Virus record (IMG/VR): IMGVR_UViG_3300034523_000144
Span: 1-32,610 of that record
DNA length: 32,610 nt
Source of the DNA: a virus
Taxonomy: Duplodnaviria > Caudoviricetes
Direction: 5' to 3' (one strand)
Shown: positions 4,507 to 32,610 of the stretch, piece after piece
Position numbering within the stretch: the stretch's first letter is position 1
Layout of the letters: every line of letters begins with the position of its first letter
The notes under the pieces: generated by a model
Database searches by the model: none
Told to the model about the DNA's origin: nothing
The model's input: the letters and a program-made list of their open reading frames with translations, nothing else
Made by a program: the position numbers and the translations under genes

Positions 4507-7005
4507 TTAGACATGAGGCTCGTCATATAACTTGCGGTTCTGCAACTGCTGAGTCGCCTGCTGCATCTGCTGCTCGATAAAGGGCCGCAGCTCGCGGGCC
4601 ATCTGCGCCGGATCCTTCGCATCCCCTTGTACGGTGATGTGCAGTGGGGCGGAGATCTCCACCCGTTGCTCGAACTTGGATGGTTCAGACTTAGCCGCTG
4701 CCGGCGGCGGAGCCAACAACGCTGGCACGCTCGGCGGTGCAGGTGTGCTCAAAGAACGCGCCACATCCCCCATCACGGCCGCATCGGCGGCGCGCTCTGG
4801 CAAAAGTGTCTGTAGTACTGAGGGCGTGGCAACGCTCGGACCAGTTGGGCTTGCGGCGGTAGGTGCAAAGGATCGGGCGATGTTGCCTATTACCGGCGGC
4901 AAGTTCTGCCCGGCGTTGGTCATCATCAACGGCCCTGCATCCGGGACTTTCTTTAGCGACTCGTCCGCTCCAAACCACGATTTGCCTAGCGATCCGCCCA
5001 GAGCATCGCCGCCCATGTAACCCAGGTAACCACCGATCACGCCACCGACCAGGTTACCGATGATGGGGATCGCCGTCCCGATAGCAGCACCGGCCGCGGC
5101 ACCGGCCAGTGTGCCGGCCAAACCACCTGCAGCTTGTCCATAACCCTCGGCTTTTTCATCCTGAGTTTCGGCATTTTCATAGGTGTCGTAAGCCTTAAAG
5201 CCAGCCTGGGCAACCGCGAAGATTGCCGGGCCTTTCATGCCATCGACGATCGCGGCACCGCGGCCACCGCCGCCTCTGCCACCACCCCTAGCGCCTTTGC
5301 TTTTCTTGCGATCGCCGTCTGCATCAATACTGCCGCCATCGAGTCCTGTGCCCCCGGCAGGCAAGTTGGTGACAATGACTTTTTGCGGGATGTTTGGATT
5401 GCCCATCAACGTGCCGCGCCCGATATTCATCAGGCCTTTGCCAACCTTGAACGCACTAACCGCCCCCTTCAATGCAATCAAACCGGCGACGGCAGTGCCT
5501 ATACCGAGCGTGACTCGCGGAAACTCGTCGGCGAACTCCGACAGTTTGCGGCTGACATTGTTGATGCCGTCAGCCACCGTATCGGTAACCGGGCGTATTG
5601 CATCCCCAATACTGCGCATTGCGTCGTCCATGCTCTGGGCCATCTCGGACCATTTCTGCGCGGACGTCTGCCGGCGCTCGGCGAGGTTCTTGTCGAGGAT
5701 CCCGGTGGCATCGGCCGAGTCCTTTTTCAGCTGGTTGTACAGATCCTTGTTCTGCATGTACGCGGTCAGCGCTGCCTTGACCTGCATGTCGGCGAACAGA
5801 TCGCCGGTACGCAACGCCTCCTCCAGAGACTTCATCATGGCTTTGGCTTTCTCGGGATCGGCCTCTTTGCTGATAGCCGCCGTCGCCTTAGCCATCTCAG
5901 CCGCCCGCTTCGGATCGGTCGCTTCGATGTACTTCTGGGCCAGGGCAAAACTGGATTCCAGCGTGGATTTGCCATTCTGCAAGCCGGTTTGCATCGAGCC
6001 CTTGTAGTCGATACCAGCCTTCTTGTAAGCATCGACCGTCTCGCCGGAACCGATTTTTTCCATCCAGTTCTTGAGGTTGTTGGCCGCTTCGTCGGAACCG
6101 CCGGCGGTCTTCATCTGCACCTGCAGCATCGCGCCCAGTTGCGTAACCGAGTCCATGCCGGTGATACCGAGCTTGCCCATGCCGGCCAGCAGCTCGGGAA
6201 ACCACTTGGCCATGTCGACCGCTTCAAAGCTACCTGCCTGGCCCTGGTAGGCAATGGCTTCCAGGGCTTTCTCCATCACTTTGGGGTCAGTGATTTTCGC
6301 GTTTTGCCCCAAGGCGTTGATCATCTTCGCTGTTTCAGTGCCTTCAGATCCTTGGCCCACCGCAAATTTGGCTGCGGTCGGTGCATAGGACAGCGCCTTG
6401 TCTAACTCCATACCGGCGCCGACGAGAGCGTTGACCACCTCGGCAACCTGATTACGCGCCATACCCGTATCGCGTGAGGTGTCGATCACAGTCTTGGACA
6501 GCTGTGCCTCTTCCGGCGAGTTGGCAATGTTGGCCTTGATCGCAATGTCCCGGATGATCGCGCCGTAGTCCGCGCTGACCTTGGTCGGGATCGCTGCTGC
6601 CGCCGTAAATGCGCCGGCTTGGCCGATGGTGCTTTTCAGTCCCTGCCGGCCCTCTTCCATTTGCCGATGGCCCAGCGCTTTGAGTTCGGCCCCCGCCGCC
6701 ACGCGTCCCATCGTCGCGTAGGCCTTGCTCAAGCGACCGACCTCAACGCCTTGTTGTTTCAGCAGCGCGAGGTTCTTTTCGTACTTGTTCAACAGCTTAT
6801 CCGCGCCCTCTGCGCCGGCCATGTGTGCCTTGCGCCATTCATCGCGCAGACGCATGGTGTCACCGATGGTGTTCTGCAGGACGCGGGCTTTACTGCCGAC
6901 CGCGTCCAGATGCTTGATCTTGCTTTCGACGTCCTTGAACGCTTTGCCCACCGTCGAATCGACGGCGCCGCCAATGACAAAGCCGAGCGCGAGGTTCTTC
7001 GCCAT
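4507..7005 (-). CDS. Tail tape measure protein
   Basis: 832 aa, Ala/Gly-rich, mostly helical; located after the tail chaperone. Confidence 0.92.
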   Translation of the reverse strand: MAKNLALGFVIGGAVDSTVGKAFKDVESKIKHLDAVGSKARVLQNTIGDTMRLRDEWRKAHMAGAEGADKLLNKYEKNLALLKQQGVEVGRLSKAYATMGRVAAGAELKALGHRQMEEGRQGLKSTIGQAGAFTAAAAIPTKVSADYGAIIRDIAIKANIANSPEEAQLSKTVIDTSRDTGMARNQVAEVVNALVGAGMELDKALSYAPTAAKFAVGQGSEGTETAKMINALGQNAKITDPKVMEKALEAIAYQGQAGSFEAVDMAKWFPELLAGMGKLGITGMDSVTQLGAMLQVQMKTAGGSDEAANNLKNWMEKIGSGETVDAYKKAGIDYKGSMQTGLQNGKSTLESSFALAQKYIEATDPKRAAEMAKATAAISKEADPEKAKAMMKSLEEALRTGDLFADMQVKAALTAYMQNKDLYNQLKKDSADATGILDKNLAERRQTSAQKWSEMAQSMDDAMRSIGDAIRPVTDTVADGINNVSRKLSEFADEFPRVTLGIGTAVAGLIALKGAVSAFKVGKGLMNIGRGTLMGNPNIPQKVIVTNLPAGGTGLDGGSIDADGDRKKSKGARGGGRGGGGRGAAIVDGMKGPAIFAVAQAGFKAYDTYENAETQDEKAEGYGQAAGGLAGTLAGAAAGAAIGTAIPIIGNLVGGVIGGYLGYMGGDALGGSLGKSWFGADESLKKVPDAGPLMMTNAGQNLPPVIGNIARSFAPTAASPTGPSVATPSVLQTLLPERAADAAVMGDVARSLSTPAPPSVPALLAPPPAAAKSEPSKFEQRVEISAPLHITVQGDAKDPAQMARELRPFIEQQMQQATQQLQNRKLYDEPHV

Positions 7006-23490: not shown

Positions 23491-23586
23491 GGTGGTGTAG
23501 TGCCTGCCGCTCTCTGCGGTCGCACCTATCGAAGATGACTACTTTTTACAGGTCGATTCCGGTGGCAGCAACCCCGGTTTAATGCC

Positions 23587-23640
23587 ACCCAGTGAATAAG
23601 TGGGTAATGAGGGGTGAACGTCTAGCGAATGTGGGCGAAT
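23587..23640 (-). promoter_or_regulatory. Five helically phased ATTC-like repeats (P-box-like) upstream of the late operon
   Basis: Minus strand ATTCGCCCAC/ATTCGCTAGAC/GTTCACCCCTC/ATTACCCACTT/ATTCACTGGG, spacing 10,11,11,11. Confidence 0.5.
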
Positions 23641-26545: not shown

Positions 26546-26762
26546 GGCGAGTCCCCTTCAGCTCCGCGAGAGAAAGACACCCCACGCATTGCGTGCAGCC
26601 GGGCTGCGCCAAGCGACGGGCCTCCGGGATCGGGTCATCGCACGTTTCGCAGAACATAAACGAATGCGCCACCAAGGCAGGTTTGGTGGCGTTGCGTGCA
26701 GCGAGCGCTTGATCGATGCGCTCTTGCACCAGGTCATTAGCGAAGTCAGCAATGTCAGCCAC
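26538..26762 (-). CDS. TraR/DksA C4-type zinc finger protein (PtrB-like)
   Basis: GTG start; ADIADFAND acidic tip, CETCDDPIPEARRLAQPGCTQCVGC. Confidence 0.9.
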   Translation of the reverse strand: MADIADFANDLVQERIDQALAARNATKPALVAHSFMFCETCDDPIPEARRLAQPGCTQCVGCLSLAELKGTRHA

Positions 26763-27273
26763 GATCAACACCCCGCGTCGTCTGGTTGACATACGTGGCG
26801 CGGTTGAACAACCCCAACAACCCCTGAATCCCACGAAACACCTGCAGGCGAATCGCAGCCAGTTCCTCATCAGTGACGACACCGTCACCAATGCTCTTGG
26901 CCCAGGTGTCCGCCAGATCCGCCACCTTGCGGAAGTATTCCGCGATACCGGTGGTCAACGTCTCAGGCATGTCATTGGTGTACGCCTCGGCCAGCTCCTG
27001 CCAGATCGTGTCACCGACTAACGCATGCACTGCATCCAGAATGCGGCGATCCTTGGTCAGCTCCAGAATCTCGCCGAACTCTTGAATATTCACCGTGTGG
27101 CTGGGGTGGGTTGGGGAAAGCTTGTGCTGCAGCGTGGTCGCATTCCGGCCGGTAGTAGCGGCGATGGCGGCGGCACCACCGGGATAGTCCCGTGCGGCAT
27201 GGTAAAGCGCAAGATCGAGCGGCAGGACTTCCCGCTGCGCCCGGTCTAAAGAGCTCAGAATGATACGGCTCAT
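26755..27273 (-). CDS. Phage regulatory protein, CII family
   Basis: ALYHAARDYPGGAAAIA...TLQHKLSPT; DGVVTDEE C-terminus; downstream of cro. Confidence 0.8.
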   Translation of the reverse strand: MSRIILSSLDRAQREVLPLDLALYHAARDYPGGAAAIAATTGRNATTLQHKLSPTHPSHTVNIQEFGEILELTKDRRILDAVHALVGDTIWQELAEAYTNDMPETLTTGIAEYFRKVADLADTWAKSIGDGVVTDEELAAIRLQVFRGIQGLLGLFNRATYVNQTTRGVDRG

Positions 27274-27299
27274 GGCATTAATCCTTGTAAGTTGCCAGT

Positions 27300-27600
27300 G
27301 CCGCACGACAGAGAGTGGTGATACATTTGTCGTGTGGCTTGATAGGCCCAAACGCCGGCGAGGTTCCTAAGACCAACACCGGCACCGTGCCGAGGCGAAC
27401 AATCCGTTGTTCACCCCTGGCGCAACAGCTGCCAACTCTGTGGTGGAAATGGCAGCAACACCAAAGCTTCCGAGCCTTGGAAAACGCGAAAGGTGTGGGC
27501 GGTTTTGCATTTGGTTTGCCCGCCAACTCCAATCGCGGCCCGACAGCGCTGTGGTGGTGCGTGTCGGGAGGAACTGGGCGACCCTTGGGTCGCCTTTTTT
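27300..27600. ncRNA. Structured cro-cII spacer: tandem hairpins, three with GTGGTG/CACCAC loops; candidate + strand RNA ending at a terminator
   Basis: Stems 27300-27338, 27428-27456, 27539-27568 plus smaller hairpins; extended -10 TGaTACATT 27319-27327. Confidence 0.5.
27577..27600 (+). terminator. Intrinsic terminator on the + strand, abutting the cro stop
   Basis: GGCGACCC-TT-GGGTCGCC-TTTTTT. Confidence 0.75.
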
Positions 27601-27825
27601 CTAAGCTACTTTCTTGAAATCCATCTCCGGCGGAAAAACATCATCAAGCGAGCATTTGATTCCGAGCTGATTCAACGCAGCCGTAATTGCGCGAGACTCT
27701 GCAAGTCCGGCTACGCGGCGCCCAGATTCATAATTACTAATCCGCGTCTGCGTCCAGCCCAGAATCAAAACCAAATCACGCTGTTTGATACCAGCCTTCT
27801 CTCGATGGTCAGCAATCCTATTCAT
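27601..27825 (-). CDS. cro: Cro-like HTH regulator
   Basis: 74 aa HTH (IKQRDLVLILGWTQTRISNYESGRR), AGGAG SD, divergent from the repressor. Confidence 0.88.
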   Translation of the reverse strand: MNRIADHREKAGIKQRDLVLILGWTQTRISNYESGRRVAGLAESRAITAALNQLGIKCSLDDVFPPEMDFKKVA

Positions 27826-27849: not shown

Positions 27850-27878
27850 AGAATAAACACGATTCGTGATTTTTACAA
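27850..27878 (-). promoter_or_regulatory. pR-like promoter TTGTAA-N17-TATTCT overlapped by operator AAACACGATTCGTGAT
   Basis: Minus strand -35 at 27878-27873, -10 at 27855-27850; operator 27855-27870, second weaker copy 27876-27891. Confidence 0.7.
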
Positions 27879-27925: not shown

Positions 27926-28651
27926 ATGAACACACTAGGCTCACGCATCAAATCACTCCGAAAAGCCAAAGGTATGAGCCAGAAAGATCTGGCACTTGCC
28001 TGTGGCTGGGAATCACAGTCTCGTATTGGTAACTATGAGAAGGATCAACGCCAGCCCAACCTTCAGGATCTAGGGAGAATTGCTGCCGCCCTAAAAACGT
28101 CGCTGACAGAACTGGTCAAAGATGTCGACGGACCATTACCCCATTTATCTGGTGATGCACACGGAAACATTTTCGACATCAGATTTCCCCCTCGGCTTAA
28201 GACCAGCCAGAGCGAAGGATTAACATCAGCAGGACGAGCGAAAACAGGGAGTGTTCCGGTGGTTGGGACCGCACAGCTAGGCAACGAAGGATATTTTGAG
28301 GCGCTTGATTTTCCTCCTGACCACGGCGATGGTTACTTGAGCATCCACAGCGATGACCCTGATGCCTACGGATTAAAGGTTACCGGCGACAGCATGCTTC
28401 CCAGGATAAAAAATGGTGAGTACGTGCTTATAGAGCCCAATAAAAGCTACTTCAGCGGCGATGAGGTTGTGGTCAGAACCGCAGAAGGCCGAACGATGAT
28501 CAAGGAATTCATTTACCTGAGAGATGGGATGTACCGATTGGACAGCGTAAACGCCGAACACCCTCCAATCCATATCGCCGCGAGCGACGTGATTGAGATT
28601 CACCTCGTCGGCGGCATCCTCAAGTCATCACGTTTTTTGCACGCAACGTGA
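27926..28651 (+). CDS. cI: CI-like repressor, HTH + S24 peptidase (PrtR-like)
   Basis: N-terminal HTH, VPVVG, VTGDSM catalytic Ser, MIKEF catalytic Lys. Confidence 0.93.
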   Translation: MNTLGSRIKSLRKAKGMSQKDLALACGWESQSRIGNYEKDQRQPNLQDLGRIAAALKTSLTELVKDVDGPLPHLSGDAHGNIFDIRFPPRLKTSQSEGLTSAGRAKTGSVPVVGTAQLGNEGYFEALDFPPDHGDGYLSIHSDDPDAYGLKVTGDSMLPRIKNGEYVLIEPNKSYFSGDEVVVRTAEGRTMIKEFIYLRDGMYRLDSVNAEHPPIHIAASDVIEIHLVGGILKSSRFLHAT

Positions 28652-28657
28652 CAAAAT

Positions 28658-28700
28658 AAACACATAACGTGTTGACTTAAAAAACACACTGCGTGATATT
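28658..28700 (+). promoter_or_regulatory. pL-like promoter TTGACT-N17-GATATT with two operators (AAACACATAACGTGTT, AAACACACTGCGTGAT)
   Basis: -35 28672-28677, -10 28695-28700; operators 28658-28673 and 28682-28697 match the cro-side operator. Confidence 0.75.
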
Positions 28701-28735
28701 TGCCTCACTCTTACACCACAGAGCGAGGCAAAATC

Positions 28736-28912
28736 ATGCAAACCTGCGCAACCCTCCACGTCCATCCGGCATGCGTCAGCAACAAAAAGATGATTGAGCA
28801 GCTGCAGGCAGCTACTGGCTGCTTGGTCATCATCCACAACAGAAAACCCAAGCTGATAGCCAAATCCCAGCCACTCCCTTTCGATCCGAATGATGGAGGG
28901 CACGCGGCATGA
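28736..28912 (+). CDS. Hypothetical early protein, 58 aa
   Basis: GAGG SD, ATG 28736, ATGA overlap with the next gene. Confidence 0.7.
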   Translation: MQTCATLHVHPACVSNKKMIEQLQAATGCLVIIHNRKPKLIAKSQPLPFDPNDGGHAA

Positions 28913-29509: not shown

Positions 29510-29791
29510 ATGGAACGCACACTCGCTCAAGCCGCAGCGCAACTCGGCCTGACCCGTCCAAAGCTGATTTCCCTCATGCGGGAAAAAGACCTGCTCAAGG
29601 GCAACCTGCCTGCTTACCCCATACGCGACAAAGAGTATCTGCGCGTCAAGGACGGCCAATGGTTTCACGAAACGTTTGGCATGCAGTACAGCCAATCGAC
29701 GAGAGTGAAAGAACCAGGCATCCGCTGGCTTGCTGAGCAATTCGGATTCGACCTACCCGCCATCCCGGCAGATCGCCGTGACGTGGCCTAG
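29510..29791 (+). CDS. Phage antirepressor KilAC-domain protein
   Basis: AQAAAQLGLTRPKLISLMREK...NLP...STRVKEPGIRWLAE; GGGAG SD. Confidence 0.8.
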   Translation: MERTLAQAAAQLGLTRPKLISLMREKDLLKGNLPAYPIRDKEYLRVKDGQWFHETFGMQYSQSTRVKEPGIRWLAEQFGFDLPAIPADRRDVA

Positions 29792-30267: not shown

Positions 30268-30323
30268 ATCACCAACCCAAGGACTGCCACCACCAGTCCG
30301 CAATTGAACCAGGAGCAAACCAA

Positions 30324-30755
30324 ATGACCGCAATTCAAATCTGCGCACTGATAGCAATCGTCCTAATGACCGCCGGCATTTACTGGCTCGCCTACCGGAA
30401 CGGATTCAACAACGGCCTAACTGAGGGCCATACAGAAGGCTACAGCGAAGGCATAGCCGTTCAGAGCGCTGACAAATCTGAAGAGATCCGTAATCTCACG
30501 CTATCGCTCAAGCAGGTCCAAAACAAATACGAGCAACTCTACGACTTATACAAACGCGCCGTAGAAGCTTCGCAACTTGGAGAATCTGCACGGATCACAC
30601 TGCTGGAGATTGCTGAACAATTGCGGATCGCAGCCGATACTTTCGCCGCCTTCCGCACGGGTAAAAAACTCGAACGCGAAACCAGAGCCTTGCGCGACCA
30701 AGCGCTGGCCATGGCAAAACTTCTGCAGGTTGCAAATGAGGGAGAGGCCGCATGA
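30324..30755 (+). CDS. Hypothetical membrane-anchored coiled-coil protein
   Basis: N-terminal TM helix, GxxxG-spaced repeats (GFNNGLTEGHTEGYSEG); AGGAG SD. Confidence 0.75.
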   Translation: MTAIQICALIAIVLMTAGIYWLAYRNGFNNGLTEGHTEGYSEGIAVQSADKSEEIRNLTLSLKQVQNKYEQLYDLYKRAVEASQLGESARITLLEIAEQLRIAADTFAAFRTGKKLERETRALRDQALAMAKLLQVANEGEAA

Positions 30756-31393
30756 ACGGCACACTCTCCTACTTCGGACCAACTCATTATCGGATCTCAG
30801 AGCAAGGCGGCGAGCAATCTCGCGTACGAGCACGATTATCGACCGCTTTGCTCTGCGACAGCGCACGCGTCGATACTCAAGAAATAAAGAGTCTCTGCTG
30901 CGCAGCAGCAGGCATTAGTGCTTTTCCTCAAGCCGCTACCGAGGCACTTCCCCCCCAAGAAAAGCTGCGCCGGGCGGCGACACTCAATGCAACGCTGAAC
31001 GCTCAGAAACGCTCGCCCGCGCAGCTTGTCGAGGGGTATACGCAGTGTGACGAAGCGGCAGAGCCATCGCTGCCGACCTATCACCTCGACAAGATTCCAG
31101 AAGACAAGATGGCCGAACTGGTCGGCACCACCCGCCGGGCATTACAAGGCAAGCGCGCCAGAGGCGTTATCCCCAAAGGGGTCTGGAACAGCATTGATAG
31201 CCGCATCTATTACAGCCTAAGGAGATACGAAGCATGGCTCGAGAGCCAATGGGATTGCCCACCGGAGTTGAATTTGCTGGACAGTCCGTCCGCATTCGCT
31301 TCACCTGGAACGGGCAACGCCGTTGCGAAACCCTCCCCTATCCCCAAACGCCGAAGGGGATTAAGGCTGCCGCCGACCTACGCGCTAACGTAA
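30752..31393 (+). CDS. Hypothetical protein with C-terminal excisionase-like HTH
   Basis: DKIPEDKMAELVGTTRRALQGKRARGVIPKGVW...[13 protein letters not shown]; overlaps the integrase start. Confidence 0.6.
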   Translation: MNGTLSYFGPTHYRISEQGGEQSRVRARLSTALLCDSARVDTQEIKSLCCAAAGISAFPQAATEALPPQEKLRRAATLNATLNAQKRSPAQLVEGYTQCDEAAEPSLPTYHLDKIPEDKMAELVGTTRRALQGKRARGVIPKGVWNSIDSRIYYSLRRYEAWLESQWDCPPELNLLDSPSAFASPGTGNAVAKPSPIPKRRRGLRLPPTYALT

Positions 31394-32442
31394 CCAGCCT
31401 GATCAAGCACGGCGTGCTGGATGATCAGCGATACGCCGAACTATTCCCCGACTCCACCTATGCCAACTACACGGCGACTCCCCGTTTCGGGGAGTACGCC
31501 CAGGAGTGGCTCAACAGTCGCGAGGTCGTGGCCGGGACACGCAAGAACTACCTCGGCTCGCTCAATCTGTACTGGATGCCGTATCTGGCAATGCTGCCCA
31601 TCGACAGCATCACATCGGTGATGCTGCGCAAGGTGGTGGCCAATACCGAATGGCCTACGCCGGGTGTGAAGCGCGCGGCAATCCAGCGCCTGACCACGGT
31701 GTTCGGTACCGCGGTTAAAGATGGCCTGATCAACCGTAATCCGGTGGAGTCCATCGAACTGCCGGTGAAGGCCAAGAAACCCATTGACCCCTTCACCGTG
31801 GGCGAGGCCAATCAGATTATCAATCACCTATATAAGACGCTGACCCACTCGATGCGGATCTACGCGGCGTACTTCGAGTTCGCCTTCTACACCGGCATGC
31901 GCCCCAGCGAGATCGCGGCGCTGCGCTGGGAAGAGGTCGACAAGGAAAAGCGGCTGGTCAACGTGTGTCGAATCGTCGCGGACTACAAGATCGAGGAGCG
32001 TACCAAAACCCGCAATGGGCGCCAGGTCATGCTCAACAGTCGCGCACTGCATGCCATCGAGCAAGCCGAGCTGGTGGCGCAACAACGTGCCTCGCAGAGC
32101 CGGCGCAAACGCACCGAATCAGCCTACGTATTCCCACCAACCAAGAACTTCGAGTTCATTCAACAATCGAGCGTGACCGACAAACACTTCCAGGCAGCAC
32201 TGACCGAATTGGGGATTCGCGCCCGCCGGCAATACAACTGCCGACACACATACGCTACCATGTGCCTCATGGCGGGTATGAACCCTGCGTTTATTGCCAC
32301 TCAGCTCGGTCATAGCGTTCAGATGTTGCTATCGACTTACGCCCGATGGATCAATTCCAGCACTGACTGGGGTGAACTCGGTAAGCTCGAAAACAGCTTG
32401 ATTGGTACAAAATTGGTACAGACAGAAACAGTACCCCTCTGA
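31234..32442 (+). CDS. int: Tyrosine integrase with N-terminal arm-binding domain
   Basis: [17 protein letters not shown] arm domain; [27 protein letters not shown] catalytic motifs. Confidence 0.96.
32401..32420 (+). repeat. Tandem ATTGGTACA direct repeat (candidate integrase arm-type sites)
   Basis: ATTGGTACA at 32401-32409 and 32412-32420, ~50 bp from the presumed att core. Confidence 0.55.
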
Positions 32443-32464
32443 AACCCTTATGGAATCAGCCCCT

Positions 32465-32610
32465 GTGACACTGGAACAGAACTACACCGCGATTCTCGGC
32501 CAACTGGGCGAGGACGTGTCCCGCGAGGGCCTGCTCGACACGCCAAAGCGTGCCGCCAAAGCCATGCAGTACCTCTGCCGCGGTTATGAACAGACGCTCG
32601 AAGAGGTCAC
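32465..32610 (+). CDS. folE: GTP cyclohydrolase I, 5' part (runs off the window)
   Basis: Manual translation (M)[47 protein letters not shown]; REGLxxTPxR is the FolE N-terminal signature; in-frame ATG also at 32450. Confidence 0.92.

Follow-up and report, generated by a model that had tools for sequence, protein, structure and literature searches.

The immunity region and the early-left operon

The DNA analysed here (the window) is the 32,610-base record of a virus, a temperate phage whose nearest relatives are prophages of fluorescens-group Pseudomonas. In its switch region a cII gene on the minus strand is followed by a 327-bp spacer, cro (minus strand), cI (plus strand), the promoter PL, and the left operon. 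The left operon contains, in this order, a 58-aa gene, a 196-aa gene, an Ant/KilAC-like gene, a small gene, a PrtN-like gene, orf30324, and the genes for excisionase and integrase; overlapping stop and start codons occur within it. The features are listed in Table 1. The family profile of cII, which begins at 27273-27271, matches the PDB entry 6vli ('Regulatory protein CII') with an E of 0.003. Four AACAC-N5-GTG boxes, located at 27856 and 27877 (PR) and at 28659 and 28683 (PL), are probably CI operators. A further copy is found at 6873 on the minus strand. The first gene of the left operon (28736-28912) is 54-60% identical across Pseudomonas clades and belongs to no known family, and an Atlas look-up of this gene returned no function. 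In 31234-32610 the integrase gene is succeeded by the first part of an ORF that seems to resemble host folE, so the attachment site is probably where the record stops.

Table 1. Coordinates of genes and predicted elements of the switch region and its surroundings in the window.
Feature	Position	Strand	Remarks
Second TGGCA-N15-TGCCA box	23563..23587		Between the Q-like gene and the lysis genes
cII, 186-type (CP76) activator	26755..27273	-	Pfam PF06892, E 4e-21, above cut-off; PHROG 101
Inverted repeat TGGCA-N15-TGCCA, predicted CII site	27273..27297		Half-sites at about -59/-39
Predicted pE-like promoter	27298..27327	+	-35 GTGCCG, 18-nt spacer, extended -10 TGaTACATT
Predicted small RNA, hairpin train	27334..27601	+	About 268 nt; 27/68 pairs with double changes
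Guide loop 1	27437..27446	+	CTCTGTGGTG (27436-27445), predicted to pair with the PL leader
Guide loop 2, predicted anti-start-codon loop, specificity allele	27508..27519	+	CATTTGGTTTGC
Guide loop 3	27549..27557	+	CTGTGGTGG, against the hairpin before orf30324
Intrinsic terminator abutting the cro stop codon	27576..27600	+	Stem 27576-27595, T6 27595-27600
cro-like HTH gene	27601..27825	-	Pfam HTH_31/HTH_3; ATG start from sequence
cI-like repressor gene (HTH + S24)	27926..28651	+	Profile matches
PL promoter	28672..28700	+	-10 ends at 28700; flanked by AACAC-N5-GTG operator-like boxes
Target module 1	28707..28747	+	Leader hairpin CACCACAGAG, Shine-Dalgarno, first codons of the 58-aa gene 28736
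KilAC/Ant-like gene of the targeted operon	29510..29791	+	Pfam ANT, E 4e-5, just under cut-off; PHROG 63 anti-repressor, E 4e-6
Target module 2	30281..30326	+	CCACCAC hairpin (30281-30299), Shine-Dalgarno, start codon of orf30324; upstream of xis/int

A folded cro-cII spacer

A preliminary description of this DNA held that the spacer consists almost entirely of tandem hairpins, and the spacer does fold far better than shuffled sequences and has covarying stems. The folding z of 27300-27605 is -3.85 on the plus strand and -5.44 on the minus strand, with 0 of 100 shuffles as good on either strand. For the comparison with relatives, 160 cII-anchored loci yielded 145 distinct spacers, the window's included, that had enough upstream DNA. 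Double changes were counted on 54 sequences of less than 95% identity, in a structure taken from the same alignment, which favours the structure; they occur at 27 of the 68 stem pairs, a count that none of 500 shuffles reached and that compares with 6-9 for slid controls. It had also been claimed that a single loop sits on unrelated stems, and CTGTGGTGG indeed occurs exactly twice in the 32.6 kb, at 27438 and 27549, on different stems. The loops are the better conserved part: across the 145 spacers the two CTGTGGTGG loops are 97% conserved (loops overall 97-99%), whereas the values for the measured segments of stem and flank are 82-94%; the cro end is 57% conserved. The GTGGTG at 27315-27320, previously read as another hairpin loop, precedes the predicted start and shares the TG of the extended -10; P. 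aeruginosa-type promoters lack it. It is accordingly a promoter feature and not a loop of the plus-strand RNA. Also upstream of the predicted RNA start is a catttgtc match to the start of cI.

A small minus-strand peptide beginning at a loop ATG was considered and rejected, as its length scatters over the 145 loci (32 aa in 61 of them) with no conserved ORF. A blastn search of GenBank phages with the spacer returned a 48-nt piece in phage Haddon, two short matches at chance level, and nothing else. Ralstonia phage Dina, which has a distant cII, contains no TGGCA-N15-TGCCA box, and no GTGGTGG loop was seen in its cro-cII spacer. The guide-loop hairpins are amplified to four copies in the spacers of loci L170 and L353, so the RNA appears to be modular in length. 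Longer spacers with a second hairpin train are present in L199 (4600-5000) and L269 (near 4560-4900).

The plus-strand terminator proposed at 27577-27600 was recovered as a stem with a T6 tract (Table 1), and GCC followed by T5 is present in 144 of the 145 spacers. G-T pairs on the plus strand are frequent within the terminator (27576/27595 in 135/145 and 27581/27590 in 73/145). The stems common to both strands hold 104 G-U and 100 A-C oppositions, and because these counts are equal the structure does not choose a strand. The minus strand has the better folding z, and A-C oppositions on the plus strand are frequent at 27308/27330 (93/145) and 27543/27564 (78/145). We infer from these patterns that both strands are under selection: the cro-cII message is the RNA's full complement. 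The minus strand is identical to the target sites described below, and a protein that reads it is disfavoured as the reason because one protein would not need several different sequences, each matched to its own site. A conserved hairpin at 27300-27338 wraps the -10 of the plus-strand promoter and lies just before the cII ribosome-binding site; the A-C opposition at 27308/27330 suggests that it folds on the cro-cII message.

RNA-library contigs give a weak hint of expression. Eight of the 24 listed runs were compared; the libraries are unstranded, the runs had been chosen by matching this stretch, and uncovered parts were not counted as silence. The contigs are confined to 27347-27570 in 5 of the 8 runs. 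In each of four metatranscriptomes (4/4) the sole contigs on a 3-kb stretch lie within this interval, two of them starting at 27347, and a fifth run agrees. Contigs of 153-224 nt fall inside the predicted 268-nt unit, which may be processed; mature RNAs of the C4 and P4 CI kind are about 80 nt. In run X8 contigs with depths of 37 and 78 end at 27601, and one with a depth of 9.5 continues into cro. The contigs of run X1 also cover cII, those of run X15 are unbroken across the region, and X1 and X8 hold flanking pieces.

These traces bear on the idea that the hairpin train serves chiefly as leader to an establishment message that runs from pE to cI, as in 186, with pairing in trans being secondary. 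The plus-strand promoter does point to cI from the cII start, one X8 contig does enter cro, and in the P. aeruginosa-type loci (L165-L200) the last hairpin, which carries a GGTGGTGGCG guide loop, has no clear U tract, so that termination there may be weak. We nonetheless hold a leader function to be quite improbable, since a strong terminator is kept in 144 of the 145 loci of the clade and a leader does not explain the covariation with distant start codons described below.

Predicted guide loops, their proposed targets and covariation

The predicted plus-strand RNA exposes three loops that match the left operon. Loop 1 is a 10-nt complement of 28714-28723, a match that reaches up to 18 nt in relatives, and its core is unpaired with a probability of 0.8-1.0. 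Loop 2 is the exact 12-nt complement of 30315-30326, i.e. positions -9 to +3 of orf30324, which lies 2.8 kb away, and among the window's 73 ORF starts (ORFs of at least 90 aa) this start is its best match. The duplex of loop 3 with 30279-30302 has an energy of -21.1 kcal/mol, and the TGTGGTG of loop 3 is present in 143 of the 145 spacers. The order of the loops in the RNA, loop 2 before loop 3, runs antiparallel to target module 2, where the hairpin comes before the start codon; docking at two points would need this order. The target hairpins named in the preliminary description (28707-28735 and 30281-30299) were both right, but the strongest contact, that of loop 2 with the orf30324 start, had been missed. 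Its proposal that the RNA is an antisense regulator of the left operon in the manner of c4 or CI is well supported by these one-to-one matches and by the way in which they covary.

The PrtN-like gene served as the anchor for the target, so that the RNA played no part in locating it; this succeeded at 100 of the 145 loci, and 45 could not be anchored. Most relatives have CATGTGGTGTGC in loop 2, and the window carries the minority allele CATTTGGTTTGC. Among the 100 anchored loci, 76 combine CATGTGGTGTGC with the perfect target GCACACCACATG (TG/TG) and nine, with the window's allele, combine CATTTGGTTTGC with the perfect target GCAAACCAAATG (TT/TT). One TT locus has a single mismatch, 14 loci are imperfect and of the TG type, some of them probably mis-anchored, and crossed pairs were found in 0/100. 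Duplex energies are -21.3 and -28.2 kcal/mol for the cognate pairs versus -13.9 and -15.8 kcal/mol for the crossed pairs. Additionally, gene 28736 starts with ATGCAAACC in 8 of 10 TT loci compared to 1 of 124 TG loci; the two other TT loci do not match this gene.

The TT allele changes four times on the cII tree and twice on the prtN tree, and it probably arose once; the 85 perfect pairs are therefore not independent events. Taking the first long ORF after cro as the repressor gene (found in 140 of the 145 loci), the TT allele occurs with four repressor clusters, each of which also holds TG loci, which indicates that exchange of the intervening DNA has left loop and target coupled. The loop itself is nearly constant across 11 repressor clusters, and it could therefore give cross-immunity between phages with different repressors.

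Further cases come from other clades. A separate switch is found in the P. aeruginosa phages Haddon and vB_Pae_U5, which pair TGCATGGTGGT with ACCACCATGCA. Three different loops are present in the Halomonas phage H4907, and each matches a partner of its own of 13-14 nt; in another Halomonas locus (L210) the loop and three targets have all changed to CACACC. The loop has changed together with gene 1 in L202 and L212, and in L367 a guide loop covers the Shine-Dalgarno sequence. A pattern scan found 48 of 120 loci to be cII-linked, 33 of them with enough flanking DNA; a match of at least 11 nt is present in 30 of these 33 testable loci, some of which repeat earlier loci, versus 1 of 33 unlinked ones.

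The position of the matches also bears on the sign of the regulation. Under one alternative the present RNA would activate the left operon by opening hairpins in which ribosome-binding sites are concealed, and the RNA IsrK of Gifsy-1 provides a precedent (PMC4825925). If transcription begins early enough, the Shine-Dalgarno sequence of the PL leader can become enclosed in a fold of that leader. Loop 2, however, covers the start codon or the Shine-Dalgarno sequence itself in every clade examined, and activation is accordingly given very little weight here.

The preliminary description had offered a second reading, in which the loops read CCACCAC on the cro transcript and act as nut-like sites for a protein. 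In a fuller form of this reading, such nut- or put-like sites on the sense transcripts from both PR and PL would be bound by a protein or by RNA polymerase in antitermination. Copies of the same sense do follow both PL and cro, which is where the nut sites of lambda are placed, and the minus-strand structure is conserved. This reading is not favoured, and we regard it as highly unlikely, because different loops match different sites one-to-one over 11-18 nt (the three pairs in Halomonas, for example), the matched sites include start codons and one Shine-Dalgarno sequence, and the conserved promoter and terminator face the opposite way. Nut and put sites have a single shared element, whereas the RNA has several distinct loops, each matched to its own site. 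A scan of 14 ORFs, several of them of unknown function, gave no match to an N-like protein.

The promoter, the proposed mechanism and known systems

The plus-strand extended -10 proposed at 27319-27327 is present there as TGaTACATT, and TGnTACATT is found in all 126 spacers that bear the TGGCA-N15-TGCCA box. The box occurs in 126 of the 145 spacers, always 24 nt before the -10, and is kept in P. aeruginosa and Halomonas phages. Among 114 distinct boxes of the promoter type, 60 different 15-mers separate the half-sites and a TAnnnT hexamer follows the box by 22-25 nt in 100. Counted from the predicted start at 27334, the half-sites are centred at -59 (27275) and -39 (27295). The box moves with the promoter, being displaced from the cII start in L199 and duplicated in L269. 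A promoter scan did not call the plus-strand promoter, whose -35 is weak and whose spacer measures 18 nt.

The only other exact copy of the box in the window (Table 1) overlaps the -35 of a predicted late promoter before the lysis genes (TTGCTG-17-TAAAAA, minus strand). No third exact copy is present in the window, and none precedes int. The second box is found in 133 of 140 relatives, also in Halomonas phages, with few cases of any other spacing (258 versus at most 24); the case for it rests on this conservation, since two matches with at most one mismatch are expected by chance. Tailocin-like sites were also considered as locations of the box and rejected: the late-type pattern was found in three of five genomes, each time within a prophage locus already included here. 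CII is the probable protein bound at the predicted boxes because cI and cro are too variable and because the H4907 locus (L163) keeps both boxes with no PrtN match there.

These features determine how the promoter is to be read. The 186 CII protein binds an inverted repeat whose half-sites are 20 bp, or two turns, apart at -38/-58 of pE (PMC6593788). The window phage resembles this arrangement in having a CII of the CP76 family and an inverted repeat at about -38/-58 of a promoter that lies at the cII start and faces cI. The plus-strand promoter therefore looks like a CII-activated homologue of pE rather than a plain constitutive immunity promoter. If the same antisense RNA were made constitutively in the lysogen it would be a second layer of immunity, and the box would be a repression site or belong to another protein (Q-like or PrtN-like). 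The extended -10 is invariant, the loop hardly differs between repressor clusters, and the late promoter, at which a Q-like protein acts, has a copy of the box as well. Constitutive expression accounts for the RNA contigs that leave cII and cro uncovered as well as CII activation does. The geometry and position of the box match those of 186 CII and pE, and the H4907 locus keeps both boxes without PrtN; we therefore consider constitutive expression unlikely, though it is the most plausible of the alternatives discussed here.

Taken together, the spacer encodes a real conserved RNA element, and its most likely role is that of an antisense regulator which CII activates and which acts in trans on the early-left operon. 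In its specific form, an RNA of about 268 nt made from a pE-type promoter that would block translation of this operon, the explanation is the best available and is judged fairly probable on the sequence comparisons. After infection PR would produce CII, which would bind TGGCA-N15-TGCCA and activate the plus-strand promoter. The terminated RNA is proposed to dock at two points on each target, with a GUGGUGG loop on the CCACCAC hairpin and another loop over the start codon, and would block the initiation of translation at both modules. As the stop and start codons of the left operon overlap, a block at the first gene of each overlapping run would also lower expression of the Ant-like, PrtN-like, and xis genes, and lysogeny would be favoured. 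The second box covers the predicted late -35, and CII bound there may delay the lysis genes. Once the prophage is induced, the cro-cII message, to which the RNA is complementary over its whole length, would titrate it. A certain amount of read-through may provide cI, above all in the P. aeruginosa-type loci. A wider and more tentative proposal, which we would not yet call probable, is that the lysogeny-establishment promoter has been rewired in a widespread group of temperate phages of Pseudomonas and Halomonas. In these phages CII would drive, instead of a repressor message, a modular multi-guide RNA that silences the antirepressor/excision operon in trans, with the cro-cII message as its sponge and with exchangeable loop alleles that form an RNA immunity group across repressor groups.

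An antisense RNA of this kind would mean that, among Pseudomonas prophages of a very common group, the lysis-lysogeny switch of the lambda/186 type has an additional RNA layer. The principles that would be joined, activation of pE by CII and antisense immunity of the c4 type, are known; we did not find their combination described. The window's allele is a natural specificity variant, and the natural allele pairs, together with the isolated phages Haddon, vB_Pae_U5, LPPA36, and H4907, make the RNA directly testable.

No description of the RNA was found in the literature searched, which took in few subscription papers, or in Rfam, the one motif catalogue consulted, so a prior listing is possible. 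The words 'small RNA' and 'antisense' are absent from the text of the H4907 paper (PMC10580944). Rfam gave no match at the gathering score in the window. The C4, c4-2, and c4-a1b1 models gave none up to E 10 on the spacer and none up to E 0.5 on five divergent loci, so the RNA is not a member of Rfam C4. The RNA nevertheless resembles P1 c4 and P4 CI (Rfam C4; N15 CA RNA) in having loops complementary to two-part targets at translation starts, in an operon with an antirepressor-like hit just under the Pfam cut-off. P1/P7 c4 and P4 CI are antisense elements exposed in loops that pair at two points near the ribosome-binding sites of an operon that holds the antirepressor (PMC12197685, PMC8198154, PMC4825925, PMC3632133), and c4 underlies the heteroimmunity of P1 and P7 (PMC12197685, PMC8198154, PMC4825925). 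c4 is a 77-nt RNA within the c4-icd-ant operon and P4 CI is processed from a transcript with seqA and seqC on either side. In contrast, the RNA of the window, which has no Rfam match, is predicted to be about 268 nt long with its own promoter and terminator, and it lies opposite the cro-cII leader rather than in the transcript of its targets, from which cro and cI separate it.

Antisense RNAs also take part in the lysis-lysogeny switches of lambda (PaQ and OOP) and P22 (sar); the PaQ RNA (aQ) is CII-activated, and sar represses an antirepressor. Both aQ and OOP act in cis on the gene that they overlap, the 3' end of cII in the case of OOP (PMC7067206). The window RNA, on the other hand, matches distant sites through short loops, and it differs further from OOP in that it starts upstream of the 5' end of cII and points away from this gene. 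In 186 the product of pE is the cI mRNA, whereas here a terminator stands at the cro stop codon and the predicted product carries guide loops. The window phage also differs from 186 in having the second box before its lysis genes.
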